This document shows positions 2,648-27,673 of a DNA stretch of 64,000 nt, one piece after another. Made by a program: the position numbers and the translations under genes. The stretch covers positions 57,522 through 121,521 of the forward strand of contig JACQNZ010000004.1 of assembly GCA_016202815.1 (NCBI GenBank), given 5' to 3'. This DNA comes from Candidatus Aenigmatarchaeota archaeon. GTDB taxonomy: Archaea > Aenigmatarchaeota > Aenigmatarchaeia > JACPZZ01. The notes under the pieces are model-generated. The model made no database searches, had not been told where the DNA came from, and worked only from the letters and a program-made list of their open reading frames with translations. Positions within the stretch are counted from its first letter, which is position 1. Every line of letters begins with the position of its first letter.

Positions 2648-3502
2648 ATGAACAACAGGAACATACTTCTCACTTTGTTATATCTATGCTCAATAAAACC
2701 ATTTTGTTCTAAGGAAATATCTGATATTCTGTTCGGGCATGAGCGTAATGACCGGAGTATCAAAAAATATCTTTCAAATATGAAAAAGAACGGTCTACTA
2801 AAACTCGTTGATTATCAAAATACAAAATACCCAAAATCTGAGTTCTTTGTCATTAACCTAGAAAGATTTCCTAATTGGGAAAATGACAGAGACAAAATCT
2901 TTGTTCCAGTAGGCGATCCAAACAAGGGTATAACAAGACTGTATATAGAAACGGAAAAAATTCCATTCAAGGAATTATTTGACTTACTTGGAATTTCAAC
3001 AGCCATAGGGTCTGGAAAACTGATAGCCACCATCAAAGGACGTATACCTGACGGTAGGGTAGGGTATTTAAACAGGGCAGTTCAAGAGAATGGTATGGAA
3101 AAACCCATAAACAATCTTAAAGTCGTATTCTACATTCCGCAGGGGTTAGAGGATTCGAAAGAAGTGATAGAAATACTGGAACGTCTTAAAACCCTGAAAC
3201 CTCCCAAATCAATCGGTTTCGAGTATTCTGTTAAAAAAATGAAGAAAGAAGATGAAGAAGAATTGAAGATTAAGGTGCTTATTCCGTTAGCTGTTAATTT
3301 CGGAATAAAGATAAAACAGACTCAAAACACAAAATCCCTATATCCACAGTTGATAACATACAATGGGAACGATTTGTGGACTTTTTACCCTCAACATAGG
3401 AAGGGAGAAGGCGAGATATCAATTATCAACTTCTTGAACGCCCTAGAATCTGGAAAATTCTTGGGGTTACATATAACACAGTATGAAAGGCGATTAGGAT
3501 GA
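2648..3502 (+). CDS. Hypothetical protein, possible N-terminal winged-helix domain
   Basis: 284 aa ORF immediately upstream of and overlapping cas1 start; no recognisable catalytic motif. Confidence 0.35.
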   Translation: MNNRNILLTLLYLCSIKPFCSKEISDILFGHERNDRSIKKYLSNMKKNGLLKLVDYQNTKYPKSEFFVINLERFPNWENDRDKIFVPVGDPNKGITRLYIETEKIPFKELFDLLGISTAIGSGKLIATIKGRIPDGRVGYLNRAVQENGMEKPINNLKVVFYIPQGLEDSKEVIEILERLKTLKPPKSIGFEYSVKKMKKEDEEELKIKVLIPLAVNFGIKIKQTQNTKSLYPQLITYNGNDLWTFYPQHRKGEGEISIINFLNALESGKFLGLHITQYERRLG

Positions 3503-4689
3503 AGCACCTTGTCCTAAGTGGACATGGAATAAACATCAACGTAGATAATAGCAGACTTCATGTCAAAGACGGTAGAAACGACCCAGACACAGAGCCCAAG
3601 AAATACACCTTCAAACCAAAAATGATGGACTTCGATAATGTCATTGTCTATGGTCATAGCGGAAACATAACACTCGAAGCTATGAGATGGCTCGTTAAGC
3701 AGAATGTGCAATTGACGCTGTTGGATTGGAATGGCAACTTGCTAACAAGCGTAATGCCACCGGAATCAAAACAAATCAACTACAGAATGGTTCAATACCA
3801 AGCGTATCAAACTGAAGAAAGAACAAGACTTGCCAAACTTCTCGTAGACGCTAAAATCAAGAGTAGCAAAGTTGTCCTAAGTTGGTTGAAGAGTAAGTAT
3901 CCTCAGATAAGCGATGATATCGAATACCGATACTCGAAACTACCAAGCGCAAATTCTGTAAAATACGTAATGGACGTTGAAGGCAAAGTTGCAATTGTCT
4001 ATTGGAGAGAACTTTCAAAGATATTCAACAAGACTTTTGAATTTGAAACCAGAGGTTATGGAAAGACACCTAGACCATTAGGAGCTGTAGACCCTATCAA
4101 TGTCCTTTTGAACTATGGTTATGCCGTTTTAGAAAGCGTATGTCTCAAAGCGATAAACACCGTGGGATTAGACCCTAAGATAGGATTCTTGCATGAGGCT
4201 CAAACAGGAAAGAACCCACTCGTATACGACTTACAAGAGCCTTTCAGATGGATTATTGATGTCGCTATCCTGAATGGTCTAGAGAAACGATTGTTCAAGA
4301 AGGACGATTTCATACGGACTGAGAACTATAACCTGAGGCTAAGGCCGAGTGGTGCAAAGAAGCTGGTTAGAGAGATAGAGTTGCAGATGAACAAGACTGT
4401 AGATTACAGAGGTTACAACTACAGTTGGGCATATATCATCGGTTTGAAGGCTTTGGAATTGGCGCAGTATTTAGCAGAGAAGAGGAAAACCATCGACTTC
4501 AGTAATCCTTCGCCTGAGTTGGAGATGAAGGATAACGCTGAGTTGAGACAAAAAATACTAGATTTGTCGTCTGCTAAGGCCGAGAAATTGGGGATCGGAC
4601 GAAATGAATTGCACTATCTGAGGAAGAAAGCGAAGTCAGAGAAAGCGTTTAAAATTTATGGAAAAGTAAAAGATAGACTGAGATGTTAA
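3499..4689 (+). CDS. cas1: Cas1-family integrase (casposase)
   Basis: Translation has the Cas1 hallmark block NYGYAVLES...GLDPKIGFLHEAQTGKNPLVYDLQEPFRWIID with conserved E/H/acidic catalytic positions, and a C-terminal HTH-like tail; no CRISPR repeats anywhere in window. Confidence 0.85.
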   Translation: MKHLVLSGHGININVDNSRLHVKDGRNDPDTEPKKYTFKPKMMDFDNVIVYGHSGNITLEAMRWLVKQNVQLTLLDWNGNLLTSVMPPESKQINYRMVQYQAYQTEERTRLAKLLVDAKIKSSKVVLSWLKSKYPQISDDIEYRYSKLPSANSVKYVMDVEGKVAIVYWRELSKIFNKTFEFETRGYGKTPRPLGAVDPINVLLNYGYAVLESVCLKAINTVGLDPKIGFLHEAQTGKNPLVYDLQEPFRWIIDVAILNGLEKRLFKKDDFIRTENYNLRLRPSGAKKLVREIELQMNKTVDYRGYNYSWAYIIGLKALELAQYLAEKRKTIDFSNPSPELEMKDNAELRQKILDLSSAKAEKLGIGRNELHYLRKKAKSEKAFKIYGKVKDRLRC

Positions 4690-6472: not shown

Positions 6473-6638
6473 TTACCATAAGAATTTTTTATTGCTTGGC
6501 AATATGGACATGTTAAATATTTTTTGACTTCTATCTCGGGTTCTCCCATAAATAATCTTTTCGTATTTTGATTGATAAGTATTACATCATCCCACTTTTG
6601 TCCAATTTCTGGGAGATATCTATATCCCATAAATTTAT

Positions 6639-6766
6639 TGGGGAAACCGTGATTTGAACACGGGTCACCGACTATCTCTAAGCTTTTCTTTCCCTCAAGG
6701 CTTTCTTTCTTGAAAAGAAAGGCTTGCCCGAAGCCGGTATCTTAGACCAGGCTGGACCATTTCCCC
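6639..6766 (-). tRNA. tRNA-Pro (anticodon CGG) candidate with about 53 nt intron after position 37
   Basis: Hand fold: acceptor GGGGAAA/TTTCCCC, D-loop AGCCTGGTCTA consensus, anticodon stem CCGGC/GTCGG with loop TTCGGG, T-arm CCGTG-TTCAAAT-CACGG, discriminator A; D-stem weak (3 bp); intron contains a 12 bp hairpin; CCA not encoded. Confidence 0.55.
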
Positions 6767-9735: not shown

Positions 9736-11259
9736 ATGAGGAAAATACCGGCTATAATGTCGACCCAGCACCCGGATTGCGCCAGCCTTCCCGATTTCGT
9801 GAAAGGCGACATATTCAGCAACGACGACGAGGTTGCTGAAGCGGCTAACGCCTTTAAGATCGGCTGCGACGAACAGCTTTGGGACTGGGAAGGCAAGGAA
9901 GTGGACACGCATGTTGTGCGAAAGCTGCTTTCTGCGGACGAACGGTTTTTCCGCGAAAACGCGCTTGGCAAGGACGTTTTTATAACTTACCGCATACCGA
10001 ACCCCGAGGTCGAAGGCGCCGAGCGCAAGCTTGTCGTGGAAGCGCTAGAATCAATACCGAGAAACTTCGATGTTGCGAAAAAGTTCTACGGAAACTGCGA
10101 GCCGCCGATAATAGAAGTCGCGCTGCCGATGACGACGTCACACGAACAGATGCTGCGCGTGTCTTCGTACTACGAGAACGTTGTCGTCAATAAAGAAAAT
10201 ATGCCGGTTTACGGCGGCATAAAGCTGAAGGAGTGGATAGGCGAATTCAACCCAAAAACGGTCGGCGTCATACCGCTGATAGAGGACATGCAAAGCATTT
10301 TAAACACCAAAGGAATATTGGGCGGTTTTTTGGCGAACAAGAACGCCGAGTACACACGGCCGTGGATCGCGAGATCCGACACGGCGCTGAACTACGGGCT
10401 GGTCCCGTCGACATTGCTTGTGAAATTTTTCCTGTCATGCGTCGCGGCTTCGGAAGCGGAAACGGGCGTTCCCCATTATCCGATACTTGCCACAGGCGCG
10501 ATGCCTTTCCGCGGAGGGCTAAACCCGGACAATGTGGAAAATTTCCTGGAAGAATATGGAGCTTTCAAAACGTACGCGTTGCAGTCGTCGGCGAAATACG
10601 ATTTTGAGCGCGAAAAGGTGGCGAAGATGATAGATTCGCTAAAAAAGCATTCGCAGCACAAGGCCAAGGAAATGGGCGAGGACGAAAAGCGGGGGCTGCT
10701 AGGCATTGTGGAGGCGTTCTCGGGCGGATACAGGAAAAGGGTGGAAGGCCTGGCGCATGTTGTCAACGTTGTATCAGGCAAGGTGCCGAACAGGCGAAGC
10801 AGGCATTTGCATATAGGGTTGTTCGGCTACAGCCGTAATTTCTCCGATTCTGTAAAGCTGCCGCGTGCGATAAAATTTGCAGCTTCGCTTTATTCGATCG
10901 GGCTGCCGCCTGAAATAATCGGGATAAGCTCGTTGAATGCTGCCGAAAGCAGCGGAAATAAAAACGGGCTTGACAGGCTTTATGTTAACCTAAAAGGCGA
11001 TCTTGCTACAGTGTCAGGTTTAGTTTCCAAATCAGCGATTAAAATAGCATGCGAGAAGGGCTTGATAGGCCAGGAGACGCTGGACATGGTCAATGAAGAC
11101 ATAGAAGCTGTCGAAAGTTTTGGGATCGAAATCGGGGCGAAGACGCTGGAGGAAGAGCAGCACCAGCTTCTTGCCAAGCAGATTGTTTCTAACATAGGCG
11201 ACGGCAAGGTTACCGACAGGATAACCGAGGCTGCGAAAATCAGGAAATCGCTGGGTTAG
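9736..11259 (+). CDS. ppcA: Phosphoenolpyruvate carboxylase, archaeal type
   Basis: About 500 aa with N-terminal IPAIMSTQHPD signature characteristic of archaeal-type PEPC. Confidence 0.8.
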   Translation: MRKIPAIMSTQHPDCASLPDFVKGDIFSNDDEVAEAANAFKIGCDEQLWDWEGKEVDTHVVRKLLSADERFFRENALGKDVFITYRIPNPEVEGAERKLVVEALESIPRNFDVAKKFYGNCEPPIIEVALPMTTSHEQMLRVSSYYENVVVNKENMPVYGGIKLKEWIGEFNPKTVGVIPLIEDMQSILNTKGILGGFLANKNAEYTRPWIARSDTALNYGLVPSTLLVKFFLSCVAASEAETGVPHYPILATGAMPFRGGLNPDNVENFLEEYGAFKTYALQSSAKYDFEREKVAKMIDSLKKHSQHKAKEMGEDEKRGLLGIVEAFSGGYRKRVEGLAHVVNVVSGKVPNRRSRHLHIGLFGYSRNFSDSVKLPRAIKFAASLYSIGLPPEIIGISSLNAAESSGNKNGLDRLYVNLKGDLATVSGLVSKSAIKIACEKGLIGQETLDMVNEDIEAVESFGIEIGAKTLEEEQHQLLAKQIVSNIGDGKVTDRITEAAKIRKSLG

Positions 11260-11285
11260 TTAAATAAGAATATCCAAATAATGGC

Positions 11286-11729
11286 ATGACACCGGAAAGG
11301 GAAATCAAAATAAAGCCGATAGGATTTGTGAAAAACGGCATCAAAAAACCCAGGTTCGGAAATTTTGCGGACGAAATTTCAGAGATAGTCGTGGACAAGA
11401 AATTCGCTGACGGGCTGGATAACATCGGTGATTATTCCCATGTGATCATAGTGTACTGGATGGACAAGGTAAAAGGTTATGTCACAAAACACAAACCGCA
11501 GGGCACCGGGCCTTTAGTCGGGATATTCGCGTGCCGGTGCGCGCAGAGGCCGAACCCTGTCGCGATAACGACTGTGAAACTTCTGGGACGCAATGGAAAC
11601 AAAATAAAAGTCAAGGGCCTTGACGTGTTAAACGGGACGCCTGTGATTGATATAAAGCCGTACTGGCCGCAATACGATAAAGTCAGGAATGGAAAAGTGC
11701 CTTCGTGGGTGGGCAGGCTGAAATTTTAG
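11286..11729 (+). CDS. TrmO/TsaA-family SAM-dependent methyltransferase
   Basis: IGFVKNG...NPVAITTVKLL...GLDVLNGTPVIDIKPYWP matches the TsaA/YaeB-like fold pattern. Confidence 0.65.
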   Translation: MTPEREIKIKPIGFVKNGIKKPRFGNFADEISEIVVDKKFADGLDNIGDYSHVIIVYWMDKVKGYVTKHKPQGTGPLVGIFACRCAQRPNPVAITTVKLLGRNGNKIKVKGLDVLNGTPVIDIKPYWPQYDKVRNGKVPSWVGRLKF

Positions 11730-17435: not shown

Positions 17436-17705
17436 TTACGCAGCAGAGCGGACTGCGATTTTTGCCGGCTTGTACCTGGCCATAACCGCGTCGGCTTCCT
17501 CCTTTTCCCCGATAGAGCAAAGCTCTTCGTACAACCCGAATATGCCGCGGCTTAGCATTCTCCGCCCCGAACTGTTTCTGTAACCCATTACTTCAGGCGG
17601 GTTGTTCTTGCGTACGATTTGTTCATAATCAAGCATCCTAACAAGCGAGCTGACGTACACGGCTTTCATTCCGGCTCGCGTTCTTTCGTCAATTTTTGTT
17701 GTCAT
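17436..17705 (-). CDS. Hypothetical protein
   Basis: 89 aa ORF, no motif recognised. Confidence 0.3.
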   Translation of the reverse strand: MTTKIDERTRAGMKAVYVSSLVRMLDYEQIVRKNNPPEVMGYRNSSGRRMLSRGIFGLYEELCSIGEKEEADAVMARYKPAKIAVRSAA

Positions 17706-18750: not shown

Positions 18751-18791
18751 AAGACTGTTTGAATCACAGGAATCGGGTATAAATCCGGAGT

Positions 18792-19487
18792 TTGGAAATA
18801 ATAAAGAAGGACGATCAGATGAGTGAAGAACAAATACGTTTATCGGCATCGTCTCTTGGGTTGATGCTCGACTGTGAACGCTGCTTCTGGCTGAAAATTG
18901 TTAAAAAAGTTGATAGACCTAACGGACCTTTTCCTAGTTTGCCAGGCGGCATCGACGCTGTTATGAAGAAACACTTTGATGCCTATCGCAGCAAAGGGCT
19001 ACCGCCTGAACTGGTTGGGAAAGTTGACGGCAAGCTGTTTGATGACATTGAACTGATTGACAAGTGGAGGAATTGGAGGACAGGACTATCGGTTGTAGAC
19101 AATAATATAAAATTAGTTGCGGCGTTTGATGACCTGCTTGTTAACGATGGGAAGTTTATTCCATTTGACGTCAAAACAAAGGGCTGGAAACCGAAGGTAG
19201 ACGCCAAGGATCATTATCAGCACCAAATGGATATCTATGCATACGTGTTGTTGAGAAACGGATACGAGATCTCAGATCACGCTTACCTAGCTTTCTATTA
19301 CCCAGATATTGCCAATGGTGACGGTTCGATACAGTTCATGACGGATGTTGTCAAGGTTGATATTAAACTAGACCATGCGGTCCAGATGCTGAAAGATGCT
19401 GCTAAGGTTATCGAAGGCAGAGAGCCGAAAGCGGCTGATAAATGCGAGTTTTGCGGGTGGAATACAGCTCTAAATAAATGTCAATAA
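18792..19487 (+). CDS. Cas4-like PD-(D/E)xK nuclease with Fe-S cluster cysteines
   Basis: N-terminal CERCFW, nuclease motifs AAFDDLLV / IPFDVKTKG / QHQMDIYAY, C-terminal CEFCGW...C; arrangement matches the Cas4/RecB-nuclease fold. Confidence 0.6.
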   Translation: MEIIKKDDQMSEEQIRLSASSLGLMLDCERCFWLKIVKKVDRPNGPFPSLPGGIDAVMKKHFDAYRSKGLPPELVGKVDGKLFDDIELIDKWRNWRTGLSVVDNNIKLVAAFDDLLVNDGKFIPFDVKTKGWKPKVDAKDHYQHQMDIYAYVLLRNGYEISDHAYLAFYYPDIANGDGSIQFMTDVVKVDIKLDHAVQMLKDAAKVIEGREPKAADKCEFCGWNTALNKCQ

Positions 19488-19864
19488 ACAGTGTTATTAT
19501 CATGGACGATCAGACTACGATTAATGAATTAAAGGGGCTCGTAAGAAAATTTTGTGAAGAGAGGGATTGGGATAAATATCACAATCCTAAAGACCTTGCT
19601 ATTGGAATCATAACAGAATCTTCTGAACTCTTAGAACATTTTAGATTCAAAACAAATGAAGAAACAGAAGAAATGTTTGAGAACGTGAAAAATAGAAAGG
19701 AGATATCAGAGGAGCTATCTGATATATTATATTTTGTTCTTAGGCTAGCGCAAAAATACAGCATAGATTTGTCAGAAGAGTTAAAAGCTAAGATAGAAAA
19801 AAACGGTAAAAAATACCCTATCGAAAAATCGAAAGGATTGAATAAAAAGTATACGGAGCTATAA
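19478..19864 (+). CDS. MazG-like nucleotide pyrophosphohydrolase
   Basis: All-alpha NTP-PPase pattern IITESSELLEHF...EELSDILYFVLRLAQKYSIDL; overlaps upstream gene by 10 nt. Confidence 0.65.
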   Translation: MSINSVIIMDDQTTINELKGLVRKFCEERDWDKYHNPKDLAIGIITESSELLEHFRFKTNEETEEMFENVKNRKEISEELSDILYFVLRLAQKYSIDLSEELKAKIEKNGKKYPIEKSKGLNKKYTEL

Positions 19865-19867
19865 AAT

Positions 19868-21736
19868 TTGAGATTATACGAAGGCACTGTACAAGAGTTC
19901 AAGAAAGATGTGATTGAAAATCGAATAGCTGACATTCTTTCAGAAAACTATTTTATTCAAATTAAAAAAAGGGTAACCCCGTCGGAACAGCGGTCTTGGC
20001 AGGTCTCTCTTAGGGTACTAAAAGATACGCTTGACATATCTGGTTTATTACAAAATAAAATTGTTATCGAAAATAGGCTTCCGTACACAGAGAGGAGGAT
20101 AGATGTGCTTCTATTTGGAAAAGGATATGACGGAACTGATAGGATTGTGCTAATAGAACTGAAGCAATGGTCAAATGATAATGTTTTTGATGATAACATA
20201 GATGGAAATGTTGAAGTCTATTTCGGTAAGAACAAAATACATAGAGAACACCCTTCACTACAGGTACAAGGATATGTCATTGATTTGCAGGATTTCATGA
20301 AATTTTTTAGTGAGATTCCTAGGGTTAATTTAGAAGGGTGCTCTTATTGTCACAATTACAGCAAAAAAGATAACGCTATATTGTTCGCTGAAAGATTTTC
20401 TGAACCCCTGGAAAAATACCCGCTTTTTTCAAAGGAAGATGCTTATGAACTTGGAAACTATCTAAAAGAAAGACTTTCGATTGATCCGGGTTTCGAAGTG
20501 TTTAATAGATTTGATAATAGTGAGATATTTCCGTCTAAGAAACTGTTGGATCACATCGGGGATATGATCAATAAACAGCAAATGTTCAATTTGATCGACG
20601 ATCAAATAGCAGCCTATAATGTGATTATGGATAGAGCAAAAAAACAGGTAAAGCGAAAAGAGAAGTCTGTTATAATTGTAAAGGGGGGTCCAGGCACTGG
20701 AAAATCGGTGATAGCATTGGAAGTTATGGGCGAACTGCTTAGAAAAGGAAAAAAAGTTTTTCATGCCACGGGTTCATCGGCATTTACAAAGACCTTACGA
20801 GATTTGATAGGAAAAGAGAGAAAAAGTGCAGAGAACTTTTTTAAATTCTTTTATGCTTTTACCAAAGCACCAGCAGACGATATAGATGTGCTCATATGTG
20901 ATGAAGCACACAGAATCAGGAGTAATAGCAATGACTGGGGGGTGCCCAGCATGTACAAATCAAAAAATCCTCAAATTGATGATCTTATCAGACCTGCAAA
21001 ACTTTCCGTGTTTTTTATAGATGAATATCAGGTGGTCAGACCCAATGAGGTGGGCAGTATAGCATTGATTAAAGAGTCTGCCAAAAAACTTGGTGTTAAG
21101 GATTCGGAAATATTTGAATTCGAATTAAAAACACAGTTCAGATGTTCCGGCTCTGATACTTATCTGCAATGGTTGGAGAATACGCTCGGTATAAGGGAAT
21201 CTGAAAATGTAATTTTGAATACAGATCTGATGGAATTTAAAATATTCAATTCACCACAAGAATTTTATGACGCCATAAAGCAGAAAAATAAAGAAAAACC
21301 CAACTGCGCGAGAATAGTAGCTGGTTTTTGCTGGCCTTGGAGCAAACCGAATAAAGACGGCACGTTGGTGAATGATGTGGTTATCGATGGTTTTAGTATG
21401 CCGTGGGAAAAGAAAGATGAATTTTGGAAATGGGCCAGAGACTCGTCAGGAATGGAACAGGTGGGTACAGTTTATACATCGCAGGGGTTTGAGTTTGATT
21501 ACATAGGTGTAATATTCGGAAAAGATCTCGTTTATGATTCCACCAGCCAAAAATGGGAATGCAAACCAGAAAATTCGTACGATAATACTGCGAAAAGAGG
21601 AAATTCAAAGTTTACTGAACACCTTAAGAATGTTTACCGTGTTTTGATGTCAAGAGCACACAAAGGTTGTTATGTTTATTTCATGGACAAATCTACGGAA
21701 GAATTTTTCAAATCACGAATAGAAGGATCTAAATAG
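19868..21736 (+). CDS. PD-(D/E)xK nuclease fused to SF1-type ATPase/helicase (DUF2075-like)
   Basis: N-terminal RIDVLLF...IVLIELKQW nuclease-like motif; Walker A KGGPGTGKSV; Walker B/DEAH-like ICDEAHRI; C-terminal TVYTSQGFEFDYIGVIFG helicase motif. Confidence 0.65.
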   Translation: MRLYEGTVQEFKKDVIENRIADILSENYFIQIKKRVTPSEQRSWQVSLRVLKDTLDISGLLQNKIVIENRLPYTERRIDVLLFGKGYDGTDRIVLIELKQWSNDNVFDDNIDGNVEVYFGKNKIHREHPSLQVQGYVIDLQDFMKFFSEIPRVNLEGCSYCHNYSKKDNAILFAERFSEPLEKYPLFSKEDAYELGNYLKERLSIDPGFEVFNRFDNSEIFPSKKLLDHIGDMINKQQMFNLIDDQIAAYNVIMDRAKKQVKRKEKSVIIVKGGPGTGKSVIALEVMGELLRKGKKVFHATGSSAFTKTLRDLIGKERKSAENFFKFFYAFTKAPADDIDVLICDEAHRIRSNSNDWGVPSMYKSKNPQIDDLIRPAKLSVFFIDEYQVVRPNEVGSIALIKESAKKLGVKDSEIFEFELKTQFRCSGSDTYLQWLENTLGIRESENVILNTDLMEFKIFNSPQEFYDAIKQKNKEKPNCARIVAGFCWPWSKPNKDGTLVNDVVIDGFSMPWEKKDEFWKWARDSSGMEQVGTVYTSQGFEFDYIGVIFGKDLVYDSTSQKWECKPENSYDNTAKRGNSKFTEHLKNVYRVLMSRAHKGCYVYFMDKSTEEFFKSRIEGSK

Positions 21737-21791: not shown

Positions 21792-22163
21792 TCATCTTTT
21801 TTTATATCCAAAATATTTTTCATAGGTTCTATGGGAAATTGCATCAAGGACTATTGCCAGTATTTCGATCTCGTTTGTGTGTAAAGTGTATATCAACCGC
21901 CAGCCATCAAAAAGATCAACTTTCCAAAGATTGTTCACATCCGCCATTGTGATGTATCTTTTTGGTATGTATTTTTTGGGTATCTGAATCCCTGAAATGG
22001 GATCAATTTTGAGTTGGTCAATGGCCACCTTGATAGAGCTGAACAATTTTTGTTTTTCAGAATCGACTATGCCCCGTTTTGTTTCATTTTTGACCTCTTC
22101 GTGCAATTCATGTAATTCAGCAGCAACTTCTTTTCTGTTTCTCACCCTGATTCGTTTAATCAC
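21792..22163 (-). CDS. RelE/ParE-family toxin (putative)
   Basis: C-terminal LWKVDLFDGWRLIYTLHTNEIEILAIVLDAISHRTYEKY fits the RelE/ParE pattern. Confidence 0.5.
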   Translation of the reverse strand: MIKRIRVRNRKEVAAELHELHEEVKNETKRGIVDSEKQKLFSSIKVAIDQLKIDPISGIQIPKKYIPKRYITMADVNNLWKVDLFDGWRLIYTLHTNEIEILAIVLDAISHRTYEKYFGYKKR

Positions 22164-22435
22164 GTTTCAGTGCCTTCTCTGATTATTTTGTCAAGTTTAG
22201 GACTAGGGTTGTATGTCCAAATAACACCCTTATGACTATCAATGATCATACCATGATCCTCAAAGTAACTGAGAATTACATTCAATGTCTGATGCATGAT
22301 TTGAACCGGTAACTTTCGTTTGATTTCTTCTCTGCTTATAGCAACGTCAGAGTCCTTTAGAACTTTCTCTACCATACGGACAGTTCTTAGAGTCGGTGAG
22401 TGCAAAATCTCTTGAGTTTGAAGCTTGTTCTTCAT
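22160..22435 (-). CDS. Putative antitoxin
   Basis: 91 aa ORF immediately upstream of and overlapping the toxin by 4 nt; classic TA arrangement. Confidence 0.4.
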   Translation of the reverse strand: MKNKLQTQEILHSPTLRTVRMVEKVLKDSDVAISREEIKRKLPVQIMHQTLNVILSYFEDHGMIIDSHKGVIWTYNPSPKLDKIIREGTET

Positions 22436-22582
22436 AGTTATATCATTATACAGATATCTATATATAGTTATACATAGTAGTAATAATCGTTAAATGTGAC
22501 CTAAGTAGACGTTTTGGGTTTTATTTTCTGTGATTAAAGTCGCCTTGTTGTGATTTTAGTCGTTGTTTTCGGTTACTTTAAG

Positions 22583-22607
22583 CACAAGGCTCCCCCCCCC
22601 CGCGGCG
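22583..22607. repeat. Direct repeat copy 1: ACAAGGCT + C(10) + GCG
   Basis: Same 8 bp core plus poly-C and GCG recurs at 26676-26693. Confidence 0.6.
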
Positions 22608-22980
22608 TTGTAGAGGAAGTCTACTAAATTGACGTACATTAGATACGGAATGGGGACTTTAGGTACAAAACGCCGAAAATAGTTGTCTATTTATTTATCA
22701 AGCAATGAATGGTGATTATTGTCGTCTTAATCGACGGTTTGGCTCTGATCTTCCTGAAAAATAGGGGGATCTTAAATGAAATCGAGAACTTATTCGGGCG
22801 GATCAGAGCTTTGGCAGTTTTAAAAAACGTTGATTGACGTATTTTATTATTTAAATGTCTAAGGTCTAATTATAAAGCGAGATGATCATGGTAAACTGCC
22901 ATGCTATCACCTACAAATAGACTTTATAGGCTGTAATCAGCTTCGCTGGTCGCCTATAGGGGATGAGGCGCGTCGCGCAT

Positions 22981-23631
22981 TTATTTTTTATATTTTTTAA
23001 ATAATTCAATGAAACATTTCGGATCAGGACTTATGTTAATGGTTCTGAAATAATTAAAATTTCTAAGGGTTTCTGCATTTATTTTTCTATGGGATGCTGC
23101 AATGTAATCTGCGAATTTTAGAAGTTTTGTATGCTTTGCATTGCTAACGGAAAAATCAAAATTTCTATTGAAAGAATTACTTATTCTCCTACAACTGTCT
23201 AGCGCTTTGTTTATGTTCATCCAGCTTTCTTCACAAAATACTATATCGTATTTAAGTTCTTGTTTAGATTCTGGAAATGTCATTTGACGCAGTAAAGTGA
23301 AATAATAAATTGCTATTAATCTTTCTTTGAAAAAAGCCTCCTCACCATAATTTCTTTTATAATTAACCCAATCTTGTTGACTTATGGATATTGATCGCAT
23401 TCTAATCTTCCTTTCATCAAAAAATCTTATTATTCTTTCAAGATCTGTTGCGTCTAATTTTACTCCTTTCCATTTAGATCTTTCAAATTCTTTCAAATGT
23501 TCAGAAAATTCCTTTTCTATTTTAGTTATCGAATAAGTTGGTGAGGAAATAGAACCTATAAAGATTTTGTCATACGGTACTCCACTGATATCTATTGCGA
23601 TCTTAATTGGTACTTGTCCCATACAAATCAC
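22981..23631 (-). CDS. Hypothetical protein
   Basis: 216 aa, AT-rich, no motif recognised. Confidence 0.35.
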   Translation of the reverse strand: MICMGQVPIKIAIDISGVPYDKIFIGSISSPTYSITKIEKEFSEHLKEFERSKWKGVKLDATDLERIIRFFDERKIRMRSISISQQDWVNYKRNYGEEAFFKERLIAIYYFTLLRQMTFPESKQELKYDIVFCEESWMNINKALDSCRRISNSFNRNFDFSVSNAKHTKLLKFADYIAASHRKINAETLRNFNYFRTINISPDPKCFIELFKKYKK

Positions 23632-23714
23632 CTGTTTAGAGGGTTATATTAAAGCGGTGGTAGTTGTCTGAATTATCAACTATCTTTTAAATCAGTCAAC
23701 TTCGTTTATTTTTA

Positions 23715-24689
23715 CTAATCACTAATACTCATATTCAGATTTATACTATAATCTTGAGATTCTTTGATCAGTACGCAGATGTTGTGTGATAATATCTTGC
23801 ACAGTAGTTCATTCTCTTGTGCAGTTCTATTCTTTGATTTCAACGAATCTCCAAACTTAGCTTTAATCATAGAGAACGTGCTCTCGATGTTGCTTCTTCT
23901 ATGATAGTGAGCCATAAATTCCGGTTGCCTGAATTTGAAATAGTGATACATTTTATGCCAAATTGGCGAGCCTTTGCTCTTTCCTGTGGTGTTTACTTTA
24001 AACGGAATGAACGCTTCCACGCCCAACTTATCAACGATTTTGTAATTTTCTCTTGATAGATAGGCTTTGTCCGCCGAAACCTCTTCTACGTTGAAATCTT
24101 GTACGGTTTCTTCTACCAATGGACTGAATTGTTTAATATCCGCTCCGTTTTCATCTGTGATTCTAACAGCGGTTATCAAGTTTGTTTTTGTTCCACAGAT
24201 CGCATGACACTTCAGCCATTTATGTTTCCTTGATAATCCATGCTTTACGATGCAGTATTCCGTAAATCTCGTTGTTCTGAAGCCTGTTGAATCTACGGCG
24301 AACTGAGTTTCTAAATCCTTCAAAGGTAAAGCTGTGAGAGTTATCAATCTGTGGAGTATTGGTGTTATTGTTGGATTGTTCAAAACCTTAGAGGTAGCTG
24401 TGAAATGCGGTGATTTCTCGATTATTTCATCTTCTTCGGCATTATCGAACAGACCGTTAGCCCTTCGGCACGACATCATAGAGTAGACTTTCTTGATAGA
24501 ACAAAACAACAAATCTCTAAGAGGTAAGGTTGGTCTGCCGAATTTGTATTCCGGTTCTTCGACACCTTCGAGTAAGTCTTTCAGAAGAACGTCAAACTGG
24601 TTTAACTCCATACACTGTGCTCTATTGTAAGCTGGCCAGTTCTGGGTGCTTTGTTGTTTCCAGAGGTCTTGTAACGGATTGTTTTTCAT
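23715..24689 (-). CDS. IS4/IS5-family DDE transposase
   Basis: DDE_Tnp_1-like C-terminal block YHRRSNIESTFSMIKAKFGDSL...KNRTAQENELLCKILSHNICVL. Confidence 0.75.
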   Translation of the reverse strand: MKNNPLQDLWKQQSTQNWPAYNRAQCMELNQFDVLLKDLLEGVEEPEYKFGRPTLPLRDLLFCSIKKVYSMMSCRRANGLFDNAEEDEIIEKSPHFTATSKVLNNPTITPILHRLITLTALPLKDLETQFAVDSTGFRTTRFTEYCIVKHGLSRKHKWLKCHAICGTKTNLITAVRITDENGADIKQFSPLVEETVQDFNVEEVSADKAYLSRENYKIVDKLGVEAFIPFKVNTTGKSKGSPIWHKMYHYFKFRQPEFMAHYHRRSNIESTFSMIKAKFGDSLKSKNRTAQENELLCKILSHNICVLIKESQDYSINLNMSISD

Positions 24690-24746
24690 AGTGTTATTAG
24701 GTACCTATAAATATTTAAATAGATAGGTACCGAAAGATTATATGTT

Positions 24747-24914
24747 ATGAAGCTTCAAAAACAGCTTTCTCGCAAAGCCGGAAACGTTGTATATCCCAAG
24801 TGGGTCATTGTAATATCCCCTAAAGATATAGATAAACTGGGCTGGAAAGAAGGTGTTGAACTGGAATCAGAAACAACACAAAACAAGTTATTGTTGAAGC
24901 CTAAGAAAAATTAA
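24747..24914 (+). CDS. AbrB/SpoVT-like small DNA-binding protein (putative)
   Basis: 55 aa ORF below the track cutoff: MKLQKQLSRKAGNVVYPKWVIVISPKDIDKLGWKEGVELESE... resembles swapped-hairpin AbrB/MazE-type domain. Confidence 0.3.
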   Translation: MKLQKQLSRKAGNVVYPKWVIVISPKDIDKLGWKEGVELESETTQNKLLLKPKKN

Positions 24915-24932
24915 ATTTTCGTGCCCTTAAAA

Positions 24933-26120
24933 TTATTTACTGTTTGTTAATCTGTTTAACTCTTTTATCATTTCGGATATTGGAATTTTTTTATCGGCTC
25001 GCACTAGTTTTTCTATAAGTTCTATTTGAGTTTGGGTAAATCTGGGGCTAAGGTTTTTACGTAGATGATTTTCGAGTAACCATAAATCTTCAAACGATCT
25101 CTCATTACTCCAAGGTGCATTTCTTATGTATTTTTGTATCATCTTCTCTGTATAGGCTATTTCTATTGGGATTATGTAAATCTCGGGACACTTGCTCCTA
25201 AGGAAAGATTCTATGGTGTTTGGTGTAACCGAATAAACTTCACTCAGAATTTCGTCTTCTATTATTTTTTTGTATCTTTTCCTTGATGGTTCATTTTCGT
25301 GTCCTTCTTTAAACAGGCTGTAAACCGTTGTACCTACATGACTTACAACTTCTCCTGTTTGATGACCGCTTTCTAACCATCCTTGAAAATCTTTGTTCTT
25401 CAGGTCTATGAAATCCACGAGTTTTATGCTATTAGAACCTCCTCCTTGTCTCCAGTTTCTTATCCATCCATCACAAACCAAGCTCCATATAGGTAAGAGA
25501 CGGGAATTAATTATTTTTCTATCACCGGAAAATATCATGGGCACAGCTACACAGAATACGCGTTTGCCCGTCATCATCTTGAAGAACACTATTTTCTTAC
25601 ATATGGAATCGAACGCTGGATATTGTCCATAATGAACTCCGTAGAATAGTGCCAAATGATCAAATTTCTCGGATTTAGCTGCCGGTATTATTTGATTCTG
25701 TATGACGACATCTTCTAACTTGTAAGACACCTCGAGTATTATGTCTTTTTTAGAAAACCCTCTTTTCAGGATTTCGGCCAGTTCTATTTTTTCAACTACA
25801 TCGTACTCCGTTTCGTCTTTGAAGTATGGCAATATTATGAACTCTCCGTTCATTTTTATCTGCTCTTCAACGACACTCTTCAATATTTTCTTCGAGAATG
25901 TAAGATACGAACAATCGGGATAATTAATTACTCCCATATTCTCATTTATCTGATCATTGACTTTTTCGAACGGCTGATCTTGATTAGTTTTGTTGAAGAA
26001 AACTTGTCTTTCCACGAATTCTATTTGCATGTCGTCCAGATCGGATGTCTTGAACATCCTAAACGGAGCGCGTAAAACTTTTCCACTTTTAGTTTGTAAA
26101 TTATCTTCCATCTTTAACAT
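24933..26120 (-). CDS. Hypothetical protein, 395 aa, no recognisable family
   Basis: Long ORF last in a three-gene minus-strand operon. Confidence 0.4.
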   Translation of the reverse strand: MLKMEDNLQTKSGKVLRAPFRMFKTSDLDDMQIEFVERQVFFNKTNQDQPFEKVNDQINENMGVINYPDCSYLTFSKKILKSVVEEQIKMNGEFIILPYFKDETEYDVVEKIELAEILKRGFSKKDIILEVSYKLEDVVIQNQIIPAAKSEKFDHLALFYGVHYGQYPAFDSICKKIVFFKMMTGKRVFCVAVPMIFSGDRKIINSRLLPIWSLVCDGWIRNWRQGGGSNSIKLVDFIDLKNKDFQGWLESGHQTGEVVSHVGTTVYSLFKEGHENEPSRKRYKKIIEDEILSEVYSVTPNTIESFLRSKCPEIYIIPIEIAYTEKMIQKYIRNAPWSNERSFEDLWLLENHLRKNLSPRFTQTQIELIEKLVRADKKIPISEMIKELNRLTNSK

Positions 26121-26406
26121 CTTCCTCTCTCACTACGAAGGTGAAAAGTTTAAGGTAGTCTGACTGTTTCATCCTTTTCAACGATTCGGCGTATCTCTGA
26201 ACTGTAACACGGTGTATACCAAGCTTGTTCGCAAGAATTGTGTTATTATAACCTTTCGCTGAGAGTAAGAATAAATTTTTGAGCAATGCCATATTCAATG
26301 AATGTTCCCTGCAAATTCTATTGATTTCTTCCTCTTCTTTTAGTGAAGATAACAGTTTGCTCATACTACTAAGTGTAGCATCCTGATATTTAAATATATC
26401 GGTCAT
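26101..26406 (-). CDS. HTH transcriptional regulator
   Basis: ILANKLGIHRVTVQRYAESLKR helix-turn-helix segment; overlaps downstream gene by 20 nt. Confidence 0.45.
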   Translation of the reverse strand: MTDIFKYQDATLSSMSKLLSSLKEEEEINRICREHSLNMALLKNLFLLSAKGYNNTILANKLGIHRVTVQRYAESLKRMKQSDYLKLFTFVVREEDVKDGR

Positions 26407-26585
26407 GTTTCCTCGTCTTCTGGGTACAGGATATACACAATTTTTCCGATGTCTTCTTGCGGAAAATTAACTTTACCACTGGACTCGTTATTTTTCGAAA
26501 TTGTAACCGTTCTTATTTGGCCGAATTTTATCTGATCGAAAGAAAACGAACCCTTGAACTTTCCATTGATCTTAATTGATTTCAT
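26403..26585 (-). CDS. Small hypothetical protein
   Basis: 60 aa ORF overlapping the HTH gene start by 4 nt. Confidence 0.25.
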   Translation of the reverse strand: MKSIKINGKFKGSFSFDQIKFGQIRTVTISKNNESSGKVNFPQEDIGKIVYILYPEDEET

Positions 26586-26675
26586 ATAGCTAAAATTAGC
26601 TATTAATAGCTATAAAGCTTTTGTATTGACTTTAGCTACAAACAAGCCACTTTAGCTACAAAATCGACTTCTGCT

Positions 26676-26693
26676 ACAAGGCTCCCCCCCGCG
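26676..26693. repeat. Direct repeat copy 2: ACAAGGCT + C(7) + GCG
   Basis: Matches copy 1 in the same orientation, about 4.1 kb away. Confidence 0.6.
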
Positions 26694-27043
26694 ATAACTT
26701 TATATACAAGGTATGATATAGTAGGATATAGTGGTATAATGTCGTATACGCTAATGCAATTGCCTGACGGGGGCGGGACGCAATGCGTTGCGCGCAGGCC
26801 TGCCCCCGTTTTCATGCTCACTGCCAGCACAAGTGAGAAGCTGGTTTCTCGGCAAGTAGAATTTCTTTCTACGCCAGCCATGCCGTTTGGCCAGTTTGTA
26901 GTTGGGAACGGACGGCGTCCGTTCCAGTTTCAGGGAGGTGGACTTTATGTAAAATTGGCCGGAGAGTATAAACACGGAAATCCGTGGGAAAGCAGACAGG
27001 GTATGCTTTTATGCCGCGGGTTCCCGGAAACATGAAACACAGA

Positions 27044-27673
27044 TCACTTTTCGTCCCGCATTCTTACCGCATTTGATTTCGCTTTCTCGACGTCTATGCC
27101 GCAGGTTTCCAGCTTTTCCAGGGTATCTTTTTTGACCATTTCGTTAAACAGTTTTACCGCTTTGTCGAATCCACAATACCGGTCCGATGACACCATGTTG
27201 AAAGAATGCTCTATTTCGTCCCATGTTTTTATGTCCGCCTCGTTGTGCTGTATTAAAACTTCGATCCTGTCGAGCGCTTTGACAAATTTTGATTCCGTGG
27301 TCTGTGAACTTTCATATTCTTGCCAGAGGCCGTAGATTTCATCACCGGCATTATTTCCAAGCATTTTTTTGATATTTTCAATCGCTTTTCGCTCGTTCTT
27401 TATTTTTTCTTCTTTCCTGTTTTCCTCAAAGGCCGGAACATCCCCGGCTTCGGCTTCTACAATGTCGTGTATAATAACCATCTTTAGGACTTTTTCCATA
27501 TTGGTGGAATTTTTCAGGTAAGGCCCAAGAAGAATCGCCATTAAGGCCGTTCTCCAGGTGTGCTCGGCAACGCTTTCCTGTCTTCCGTCGGATAACCAGC
27601 TGTGCCGAAGTTCCGTTTTCAATTTTTCGGCAATGTGCAGGAATTGAAGTATTCTTGAGAATTCCTCTTCCAT
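27044..27673 (-). CDS. HD-domain phosphohydrolase (YfbR-like 5'-deoxynucleotidase family)
   Basis: VAEHTWRTALMA...IIHDIVEAEAGDVP HD motif. Confidence 0.65.
   Translation of the reverse strand: MEEEFSRILQFLHIAEKLKTELRHSWLSDGRQESVAEHTWRTALMAILLGPYLKNSTNMEKVLKMVIIHDIVEAEAGDVPAFEENRKEEKIKNERKAIENIKKMLGNNAGDEIYGLWQEYESSQTTESKFVKALDRIEVLIQHNEADIKTWDEIEHSFNMVSSDRYCGFDKAVKLFNEMVKKDTLEKLETCGIDVEKAKSNAVRMRDEK

Follow-up and report, generated by a model that had tools for sequence, protein, structure and literature searches.

The closest described counterparts of the locus reported here are integrase-type islands at attachment (att) sites and the defence hotspots of bacterial chromosomes. An att island is a block of foreign composition with direct repeats at its junctions; relatives with an empty site carry the repeat once. 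Such an island adjoins a conserved RNA gene, and several foreign units can be stacked at one site. Defence hotspots, as described in E. coli (PMC10121019) and P. aeruginosa (PMC10250203), have conserved flanks around contents that differ in each genome, and these contents are enriched in defence-type genes. DPANN archaea have tiny genomes, and the gain and loss of their accessory and defence genes are poorly documented. We analysed a stretch of 64,000 nucleotides from a Candidatus Aenigmatarchaeota archaeon (contig JACQNZ010000004.1, positions 57,522 to 121,521; the whole stretch is called the window below), in which a 4.1-kb segment lies between two direct repeats that contain a run of C residues. 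All of the traits just listed recur at this locus, the RNA gene being a candidate. Our results describe an accessory gene block that lacks an integrase, at a hotspot of an Aenigmarchaeota lineage that lies close to a promoter and centres on a homopolymer; the block is not a self-sufficient mobile element.

The two repeats read ACAAGGCT-C10-GCG on the left and ACAAGGCT-C7-GCG on the right. Both were found within 1 nt of the positions given in an initial annotation of this DNA, which had pointed out the pair and the unequal length of its C tracts. Allowing up to two mismatches, the 15-nt core of the repeat occurs at these two sites only in the window, where shuffled sequences predict 0.05 sites, and no other plus-strand run of seven or more C residues is present. 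The similarity of the two copies reaches slightly further left, in the form of a degenerate iteron (ACTTTAAGCACAAGG vs. ACTTCTGCTACAAGG; the iteron sequence is CGACTTTAGCTACAA). The 4071 bp between the repeats have a GC content of 35.5%, compared to about 49% in the backbone. Hence, the segment is compositionally foreign. That it is AT-rich agrees with the initial annotation, but the repeats do not bound the whole tract: low GC (37.2%) runs on leftward to about position 18751, 3.8 kb beyond the segment reported earlier, which makes the low-GC tract about twice as long and means that the repeats enclose just the right-hand half of a foreign island of 8 kb. There is no third copy of the repeat at the left edge of this island, even with two mismatches allowed. 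Among 185,579 species genomes (source genome not included) the repeat pattern yielded 28 scattered single matches in unrelated taxa, and a search of IMG/VR with the iteron and the repeat core gave chance-level single matches only.

The gene order to the right of the segment is conserved. The HD hydrolase encoded there has homologues (78%, 72% and 69% identical) on three contigs of Aenigmarchaeota (L037, L041 and L042), each with the backbone genes in the order Topo-HAD-EamA-HD. HD homologues that are more distant (P0019 and P0020) occur in unrelated bacterial contexts. Each of the three relatives carries one copy of a module of iterons, homopolymer and promoter at the same distance from the HD gene. 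Since the module is present once in each of them, the right repeat must be native, conserved chromosomal sequence. In L037, L041 and on the right side of the segment in the window, three direct iterons, spaced 20 and 18 bp apart, are followed after 30–32 bp by the promoter, and window positions 26629–26764 are 80.7% identical to L037.

The most informative relative is L042. There, a pair of genes for proteins of 91 and 123 amino acids directly adjoins the single module, and the same pair lies immediately left of the segment in the window (92% amino acid identity for 22160–22435 and 88% for 21792–22163). The module variant of L042, two inverted iterons and one direct iteron followed by poly-C, is also the variant found at the left junction in the window. 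If positions 22605–26693 are removed, the window aligns colinearly with L042 through the junction (202/254 positions, 79.5%); alignments of the segment interior with the promoter region of L042 do not exceed 65%. L042 thus joins the same left and right flanks through one module and represents an empty site, which is what the initial annotation had proposed to look for in related genomes. Its suggestion that the repeats are att sites or a duplicated target holds insofar as they lie exactly at the insertion junctions; the right copy, though, belongs to the native module and is not specific to the element.

The homopolymer cores provide a hint to the history of the repeats. The orthologous cores are ACAAGCCC-G11-CG in L037, ACAACG-C11-GTAA in L041 and AAAG-C8-GACCGG in L042. 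The tract thus differs between genomes (C7, C8, C10, C11, C3G11), as predicted by the slippage that had already been suspected from the window alone. The left and right copies of the window agree over a stretch of 8 + at least 7 + 3 nt, in contrast to the differing cores of the relatives. Because the window cores are alike but unlike all orthologous cores, they were probably duplicated in one recent event.

We think, with modest confidence, that the segment was inserted at the poly-C core through recombination or transposition, catalysed in trans. According to this explanation, the 4.1-kb segment would be horizontally acquired accessory DNA that entered a lineage-specific hotspot. The insertion core would consist of the last iteron, CT, poly-C and GCG, just upstream of the B recognition element (BRE)/TATA promoter of the candidate RNA gene, which adjoins the HD gene. 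Insertion would have duplicated this core into two direct repeats; the left copy would have remained with an older RelE/YoeB-like toxin-antitoxin unit and the right copy with the promoter, and the C tract would later have drifted by slippage (C10 vs. C7). An insertion sequence (IS) of the IS5 family inside the segment would be a secondary passenger. We infer that the direction of the event was insertion and not deletion in the relative. Since the segment contains no enzyme known to make such a junction, the step would have to be catalysed in trans; a recombinase or transposase from another locus could have done this, or host recombination acting on the short core.

The arrangement of the iterons also bears on the mechanism. 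Joining the segment ends puts the poly-C core between the iteron GACTTCTGCTACAA (26666–26679) and the inverted iteron TTGTAGAGGAAGTC (22608–22621). Matches with at most two mismatches occur three times in the window (0.35 expected), all of them at the two junctions. A poly-C core flanked by an inverted pair that matches at 12 of 14 positions is what one would expect of a site used by a recombinase or transposase.

The main alternative is that no dedicated mobile element was ever involved: conserved flanks would enclose a flexible island, the content of which is swapped by homologous recombination with DNA of related strains. The left repeat would then be a partial second copy of the module, which arrived with the toxin-antitoxin unit or arose through unequal or illegitimate recombination at the slippery poly-C. 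The three-iteron array, the homopolymer and the promoter are native in L037 and L041, which lack the element; from 26629 onwards the window is homologous to them. The toxin-antitoxin unit of L042 has the same right end of inverted iterons, last iteron and poly-C as the left copy of the window, the segment is devoid of a recombinase, and organisms of the L037 type and of the window type share a sample (SRR12113383), all of which fits such an exchange. Yet the window cores match each other and not the core of L042; hence mere import with the toxin-antitoxin unit does not explain the left copy. In addition, the left junction breaks sharply right after the core, and the inverted iteron just inside the left end is not predicted by simple homologous exchange. 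We regard this alternative as possible but rather unlikely.

Several of our results weigh against the insertion we favour. There is no integrase in the segment and no transposase placed to use its ends, and a screen of about 45 open reading frames (ORFs) in the window turned up the IS5 transposase and, at a distance of 18 kb, a casposase, but nothing else of this kind. Neither a second instance of the segment nor a circular form or a virus or plasmid bearing an attP site was found. The empty site is seen in a single comparator, which is a different species (its HD protein is 69% identical). Homology to L037 and L041 resumes at the first iteron (26629) and not at the repeat, so that the rightmost 47 bp of the supposed element look native. 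Finally, homologues of the cassette formed by the operon in the segment, on contigs L004–L008, are not accompanied by flanking repeats, iterons or homopolymers.

The locus also departs from integrase-type att islands in more than the lack of an integrase in or beside the block. Its repeat lies upstream of a promoter and not at the 3' end of an RNA gene, its core is a homopolymer of variable length, and genomes that lack the block have its right arm, the three iterons, as well. What the locus offers is a sequence-defined hotspot with an empty site in a relative, a duplication at the junctions and no cognate recombinase. It can show whether these archaea depend on enzymes acting in trans, such as casposases, or on recombination at short homologies. 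If the mechanism turned out to be an ordinary integrase acting in trans, the finding would be a routine genomic islet.

A more trivial explanation would be that the repeat is due to chance, or that the assembly is a chimera in which two strain haplotypes meet at the homopolymer. The contig was assembled from a metagenome, low-coverage Logan contigs (L001–L003) end near the right junction (26703–26710), and neither exact-protein look-ups nor these Logan contigs provided an independent contig across either junction. Chance is at odds with the expectation of 0.05 sites given above, and both copies lie in homologous iteron contexts. A repeat of 18–21 bp should also be shorter than typical reads and final assembly k-mers, and one of the Logan contig ends is derived from an adapter, which indicates low coverage and not a branch in the assembly graph. 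We assign this explanation a very slight probability.

Comparison of the four genomes suggests that the site has been used more than once. In L041, a GmrSD-type gene ends 17 bp from the first iteron. L037 has nothing at this site, or remnants of a small gene (a pseudogene), and L042 has the toxin-antitoxin pair and a 787-aa protein. The window carries an island of about 9 kb, which includes a Cas4-like nuclease, a MazG-like protein and a Schlafen-group-3/NERD helicase. Four genomes with four different contents beside the module identify an insertion hotspot. The toxin-antitoxin unit is 84.9% identical at the nucleotide level between the window and L042 (8395–9133), compared to 67–76% for the backbone; because it is so much more alike than the backbone, this unit of about 0.8 kb was probably exchanged recently at the same site. 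As in the defence hotspots of E. coli and P. aeruginosa, defence-type genes are enriched (Cas4-like nuclease, Schlafen/NERD helicase, GmrSD, toxin-antitoxin). Unlike those hotspots, this one belongs to a DPANN archaeon and has as its boundary an iteron-homopolymer-promoter module with a junction duplication; and while E. coli islands are mostly recognisable mobile elements, mobility genes are missing here.

A 312-aa gene was considered as the conserved left flank and rejected: it is not homologous to the 321-aa gene of L037 and has no homologue in L037. To its left, an 89-aa gene (17436–17705) has a split, pseudogene-like homologue beside the iterons of L037 (about 11200–11465). The variable region of the window may start at about 17706 rather than at 18751.

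The casposase mentioned above belongs to a casposon that occupies the beginning of the window, from beyond its first position to 6628, and comprises a PolB, the 396-aa casposase and several uncharacterised ORFs between and around them. The PolB gene (minus strand, 1739 to beyond the window start) encodes Exo I–III and motifs A–C. Its motif C, CDTDS, is typical of the casposon-encoded A. boonei PolB_CDTDS group (PMC7544198). The casposase, a Cas1 protein (3499–4689), matches M. mazei 6OPM_A over its full length (E 1.5e-124); the next-best match is a CRISPR Cas1 at 3.7e-31, and there is no CRISPR array in the window. At 6609–6628 the right end of the casposon reads ...GAGATATCTATATCCC and terminates in ...TATATCCC, the same octamer as at the end of the M. 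mazei casposon (PMC6977970). In the A. boonei casposon the critical end sequence is the five terminal 3' residues (PMC6614799). A candidate 14-bp target-site duplication, ATAAATTTATTGGG (6629–6642), overlaps the 3' end of a tRNA-Pro gene by about 4 nt. This intron-containing tRNA-Pro(CGG) gene (6640–6766, minus strand) was parsed by hand, with the acceptor stem GGGGAAA/TTTCCCC, the anticodon stem CCGGC/GTCGG, an intron of about 60 nt after position 37 and the T arm CCGTG-TTCAAAT-CACGG; ARAGORN and the Rfam gathering threshold missed it. Automatic tools found no tRNA genes or Rfam families, and at 22–27 kb there is no tRNA that could offer the 4.1-kb segment the 3'-end target of family 2 casposons. 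Judging from the sequence, the 3' end of tRNA-Pro is the predicted target of the casposon, as in A. boonei. A non-exhaustive check of the literature returned no report of casposons in DPANN archaea or Aenigmarchaeota.

Casposases duplicate 14 bp of their target in M. mazei and 14–15 bp in A. boonei (PMC6977970, PMC5137440). The duplication at the 4.1-kb segment, if read as GGCT-C7-GCG, is likewise 14 bp long, which motivates the reading that a casposase was at work here. Staggered cleavage would have inserted the segment as a non-autonomous element bounded by terminal inverted repeats, possibly mobilised by the casposase 18 kb away. Its ends would be TTGTAG(A/C)(G/A)GAAGTC (22608–22621 and 26666–26679; end sequences ...CTGCTACAA-3' and ...CCTCTACAA-3'), its target GGCTCCCCCCCGCG, and its duplication GGCT-Cn-GCG, which has 14 bp in the C7 copy. 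The inverted ends match at 12 of 14 positions and abut the duplication on the right, with a gap of 3 nt on the left. Like a casposon, the segment would thus have short inverted ends, a 14-bp duplication and a casposase on the same contig, and casposases are able to integrate varied DNA ends (PMC6614799). Against this, the segment terminates in ...CTACAA-3', which does not resemble the end of the resident casposon, and its target is unrelated to the tRNA 3' end. The right inverted repeat is a native iteron that is also present in L037 and L041, the left copy of the duplication is 17 bp long, followed by an additional GCG, and neither Cas1 nor PolB is encoded within the segment. We therefore consider this origin highly improbable. 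That the segment is a miniature inverted-repeat transposable element of the resident casposon was rejected, since the terminal inverted repeat of the casposon occurs once in the window.

A broader idea is that the iteron-poly(C) core is a dedicated capture site for successive units with iteron ends. The toxin-antitoxin unit would have come first and the 4.1-kb block second, each inserted beside the promoter by a trans-acting enzyme and each duplicating a poly-C target of about 14 bp. A candidate for this enzyme is the casposase 18 kb away, which would then have used ends other than those of a casposon. By analogy, integron cassettes are also captured close to a promoter, as successive units that end in related sequences resembling recombination sites. 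In contrast to integrons, there is no IntI-type integrase here and there are no attC-like folds, the units comprise several genes with promoters of their own, and there are two units only. We think the idea improbable; if true, it would mean a casposase-driven or otherwise integrase-less system of cassette accretion in a DPANN archaeon.

The features of the locus are listed in Table 1.

Table 1. Coordinates of the features at the locus, in window positions
Feature	Positions	Strand	Remarks
Left half of the low-GC island: Cas4-like PD-(D/E)XK nuclease, MazG-like protein, Schlafen-group-3/NERD helicase	18792–21736	+	
RelE/YoeB-like toxin (21792–22163) and partner (22160–22435), left neighbour of the segment	21771–22510	-	YoeB match at E 0.022 only
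Left module: inverted iterons CTGTGATTAAAGTCG (22528–22542) and TTGTGATTTTAGTCG (22548–22562), direct iteron ACTTTAAGCACAAGG (22575–22589)	22528–22589		arranged alike in L042
Left direct repeat, attL-like junction	22584–22604	+	the homologous position in L042 leads straight into the promoter
Inserted segment, 4071 bp, 35.5% GC	22605–26675		missing between the same flanks in L042
Inverted iteron TTGTAGAGGAAGTC, 3 nt inside the left end	22608–22621	-	12/14 complementary to the iteron at 26666–26679
Internal iteron ACTTTAGGTACAA	22656–22668	+	
216-aa protein, RNase H-like fold (nearest RNase HII), no recognised recombinase	22981–23631	-	
IS5-family DDE transposase, 324 aa	23715–24689	-	PF01609 at E 1e-24; NF033579 at E 9e-36, below its cutoff
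55-aa ORF, weak AbrB/MazE-like signal	24747–24914	+	sub-threshold matches at E 0.005 and 0.0013
395-aa protein	24933–26120	-	
101-aa HTH protein, conserved partner of the 395-aa protein	26101–26406	-	weak HTH matches; 56–59% identity to the neighbours of homologues
60-aa protein, first ORF of the operon, not conserved	26403–26585	-	DUF2080 match at E 0.05 only
Three direct iterons (26629, 26649, 26667; spacing 20 and 18 bp), native array upstream of the promoter	26629–26679	+	same number and spacing in L037 and L041
Right direct repeat, within the native iteron-homopolymer module	26676–26693	+	positional equivalent once each in L037, L041 and L042
BRE/TATA-like promoter, TTTATATA at 26699–26706	26697–26709	+	iteron-like itself (ACTTTATATACAA); predicted function
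Candidate structured RNA of about 300 nt between promoter and HD gene	26724–27040	+	predicted start and end
HD hydrolase, first conserved backbone gene (HD-EamA-HAD-Topo)	27044–27673	-	

Besides the hotspot itself, our analysis revealed three uncharacterised items: a candidate for a conserved structured RNA, a pair of HTH and TIM-barrel proteins found across DPANN archaea, and a protein family with an RNase H fold. The first of these lies directly downstream of the native module. The promoter element AACTTTATATACA(A/G)GGTA is near-invariant in all four genomes (window, L037, L041 and L042), and a promoter/leader pattern gave 61 matches in the metagenomes of JGI, none of them related. In its own right, the core of L037 (11075–11092, minus strand) is peculiar in that CCC is followed by G11, compared to a pure C run in the other three genomes; it is the same in the independent assemblies L037 and L038 and could be an inversion or a footprint at the core.

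The region between promoter and HD gene has orthologues on the minus strands of L037 (about 11040–10631), L041 (about 10950–10631) and L042 (about 8262–7912). It shows covarying hairpins and the conserved loops TGCAATTGCC, TGCCAGC and GCCAGCCA. RNAalifold predicts 30 pairs, with 90.3% of the cells paired. Changes on both sides of a pair occur 15 times, compared to 6.9 in shuffled alignments (0 of 500 reach this number) and 2–5 in slid controls, and the z-score of the minimum free energy is −2.86. In Rfam 15, positions 26724–27040 have no match at the gathering threshold; within the window, matches at E ≤10 are at chance level only, and the three orthologous loci have none at E ≤1. A protein-coding function of 26739–27035 was ruled out by hand translation, since insertions and deletions do not preserve the frame and the conserved GCCAGCCA appears in differing frames. 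Hence, these roughly 300 nt are a candidate for a conserved structured RNA gene of this Aenigmarchaeota clade that belongs to no known family.

The genes inside the segment do not account for its mobility. All six ORFs were screened against Pfam, NCBIfam, PHROGs and PADLOC, and no tyrosine or serine integrase was found among them, in agreement with the initial annotation. The latter had also recognised an IS4/IS5-like transposase, now borne out by DDE_Tnp_1 and IS5-family matches (PF01609, NF033579), and an operon of three genes (60-aa, 101-aa HTH and 395-aa proteins), whose reading frames indeed overlap. The small ORF it called AbrB-like is present, but that label depends on sub-threshold matches. 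Could the repeats be a target-site duplication, or some other by-product, of the IS5-family element? A transposase of this family does lie inside the segment, and a 34%-identical homologue adjoins the same cassette in L005. The geometry, however, effectively refutes this origin, to which we give next to no probability: unrelated genes separate the repeats from the transposase ORF, which is about 1.1 kb from one and about 2.0 kb from the other, and no matching inverted repeats tie the IS to the segment ends. The inverted-repeat candidates around the transposase are weak, so that the ends of the IS are not clearly defined. Furthermore, target duplications in the IS5 family are a few bp long, compared to the 18–21 bp observed here.

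The HTH protein of the cassette operon and a protein of about 385 amino acids, the counterpart of the 395-aa protein, are also paired on at least five other contigs, in neighbourhoods that look archaeal and are different each time; the operon is DPANN-wide. The 395-aa protein, which has a TIM-barrel fold and the invariant residues D69, D154, D236, D239 and D289, has an identical entry among the proteins of a Candidatus Aenigmarchaeota metagenome-assembled genome, the hypothetical protein with locus tag HY516_02205 on a contig of 205,939 bp. It has no match, even at E 5, in Pfam or NCBIfam, models of the tRNA/DNA-guanine transglycosylase (TGT/DpdA) superfamily included, and no sequence match in the PDB, and no homologue of its family is present in IMG/VR or in collections of phages and plasmids. 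Between the start of the operon and a TATA-like box, at 26586–26628, lie a palindrome (TAGCTATTAATAGCTA) and three ATAGCTATAA repeats, which are probably an operator for the HTH or the AbrB-like protein.

The second cargo protein with an assigned fold, the RNase HII-like 216-aa protein, has no family match. Clustering at 50% yields about 85 representatives of the unannotated family that it founds, in which D14, G17 and D175 are invariant; a remote relationship to DUF3800 is possible. At 22840–22995, within the left end of the segment, TATA-like boxes are followed by two hairpins (CCTATAGGC...GCCTATAGG; GCGCGTCGCGC) and a T run on the plus strand. These could belong to a small plus-strand RNA or to a bidirectional terminator.

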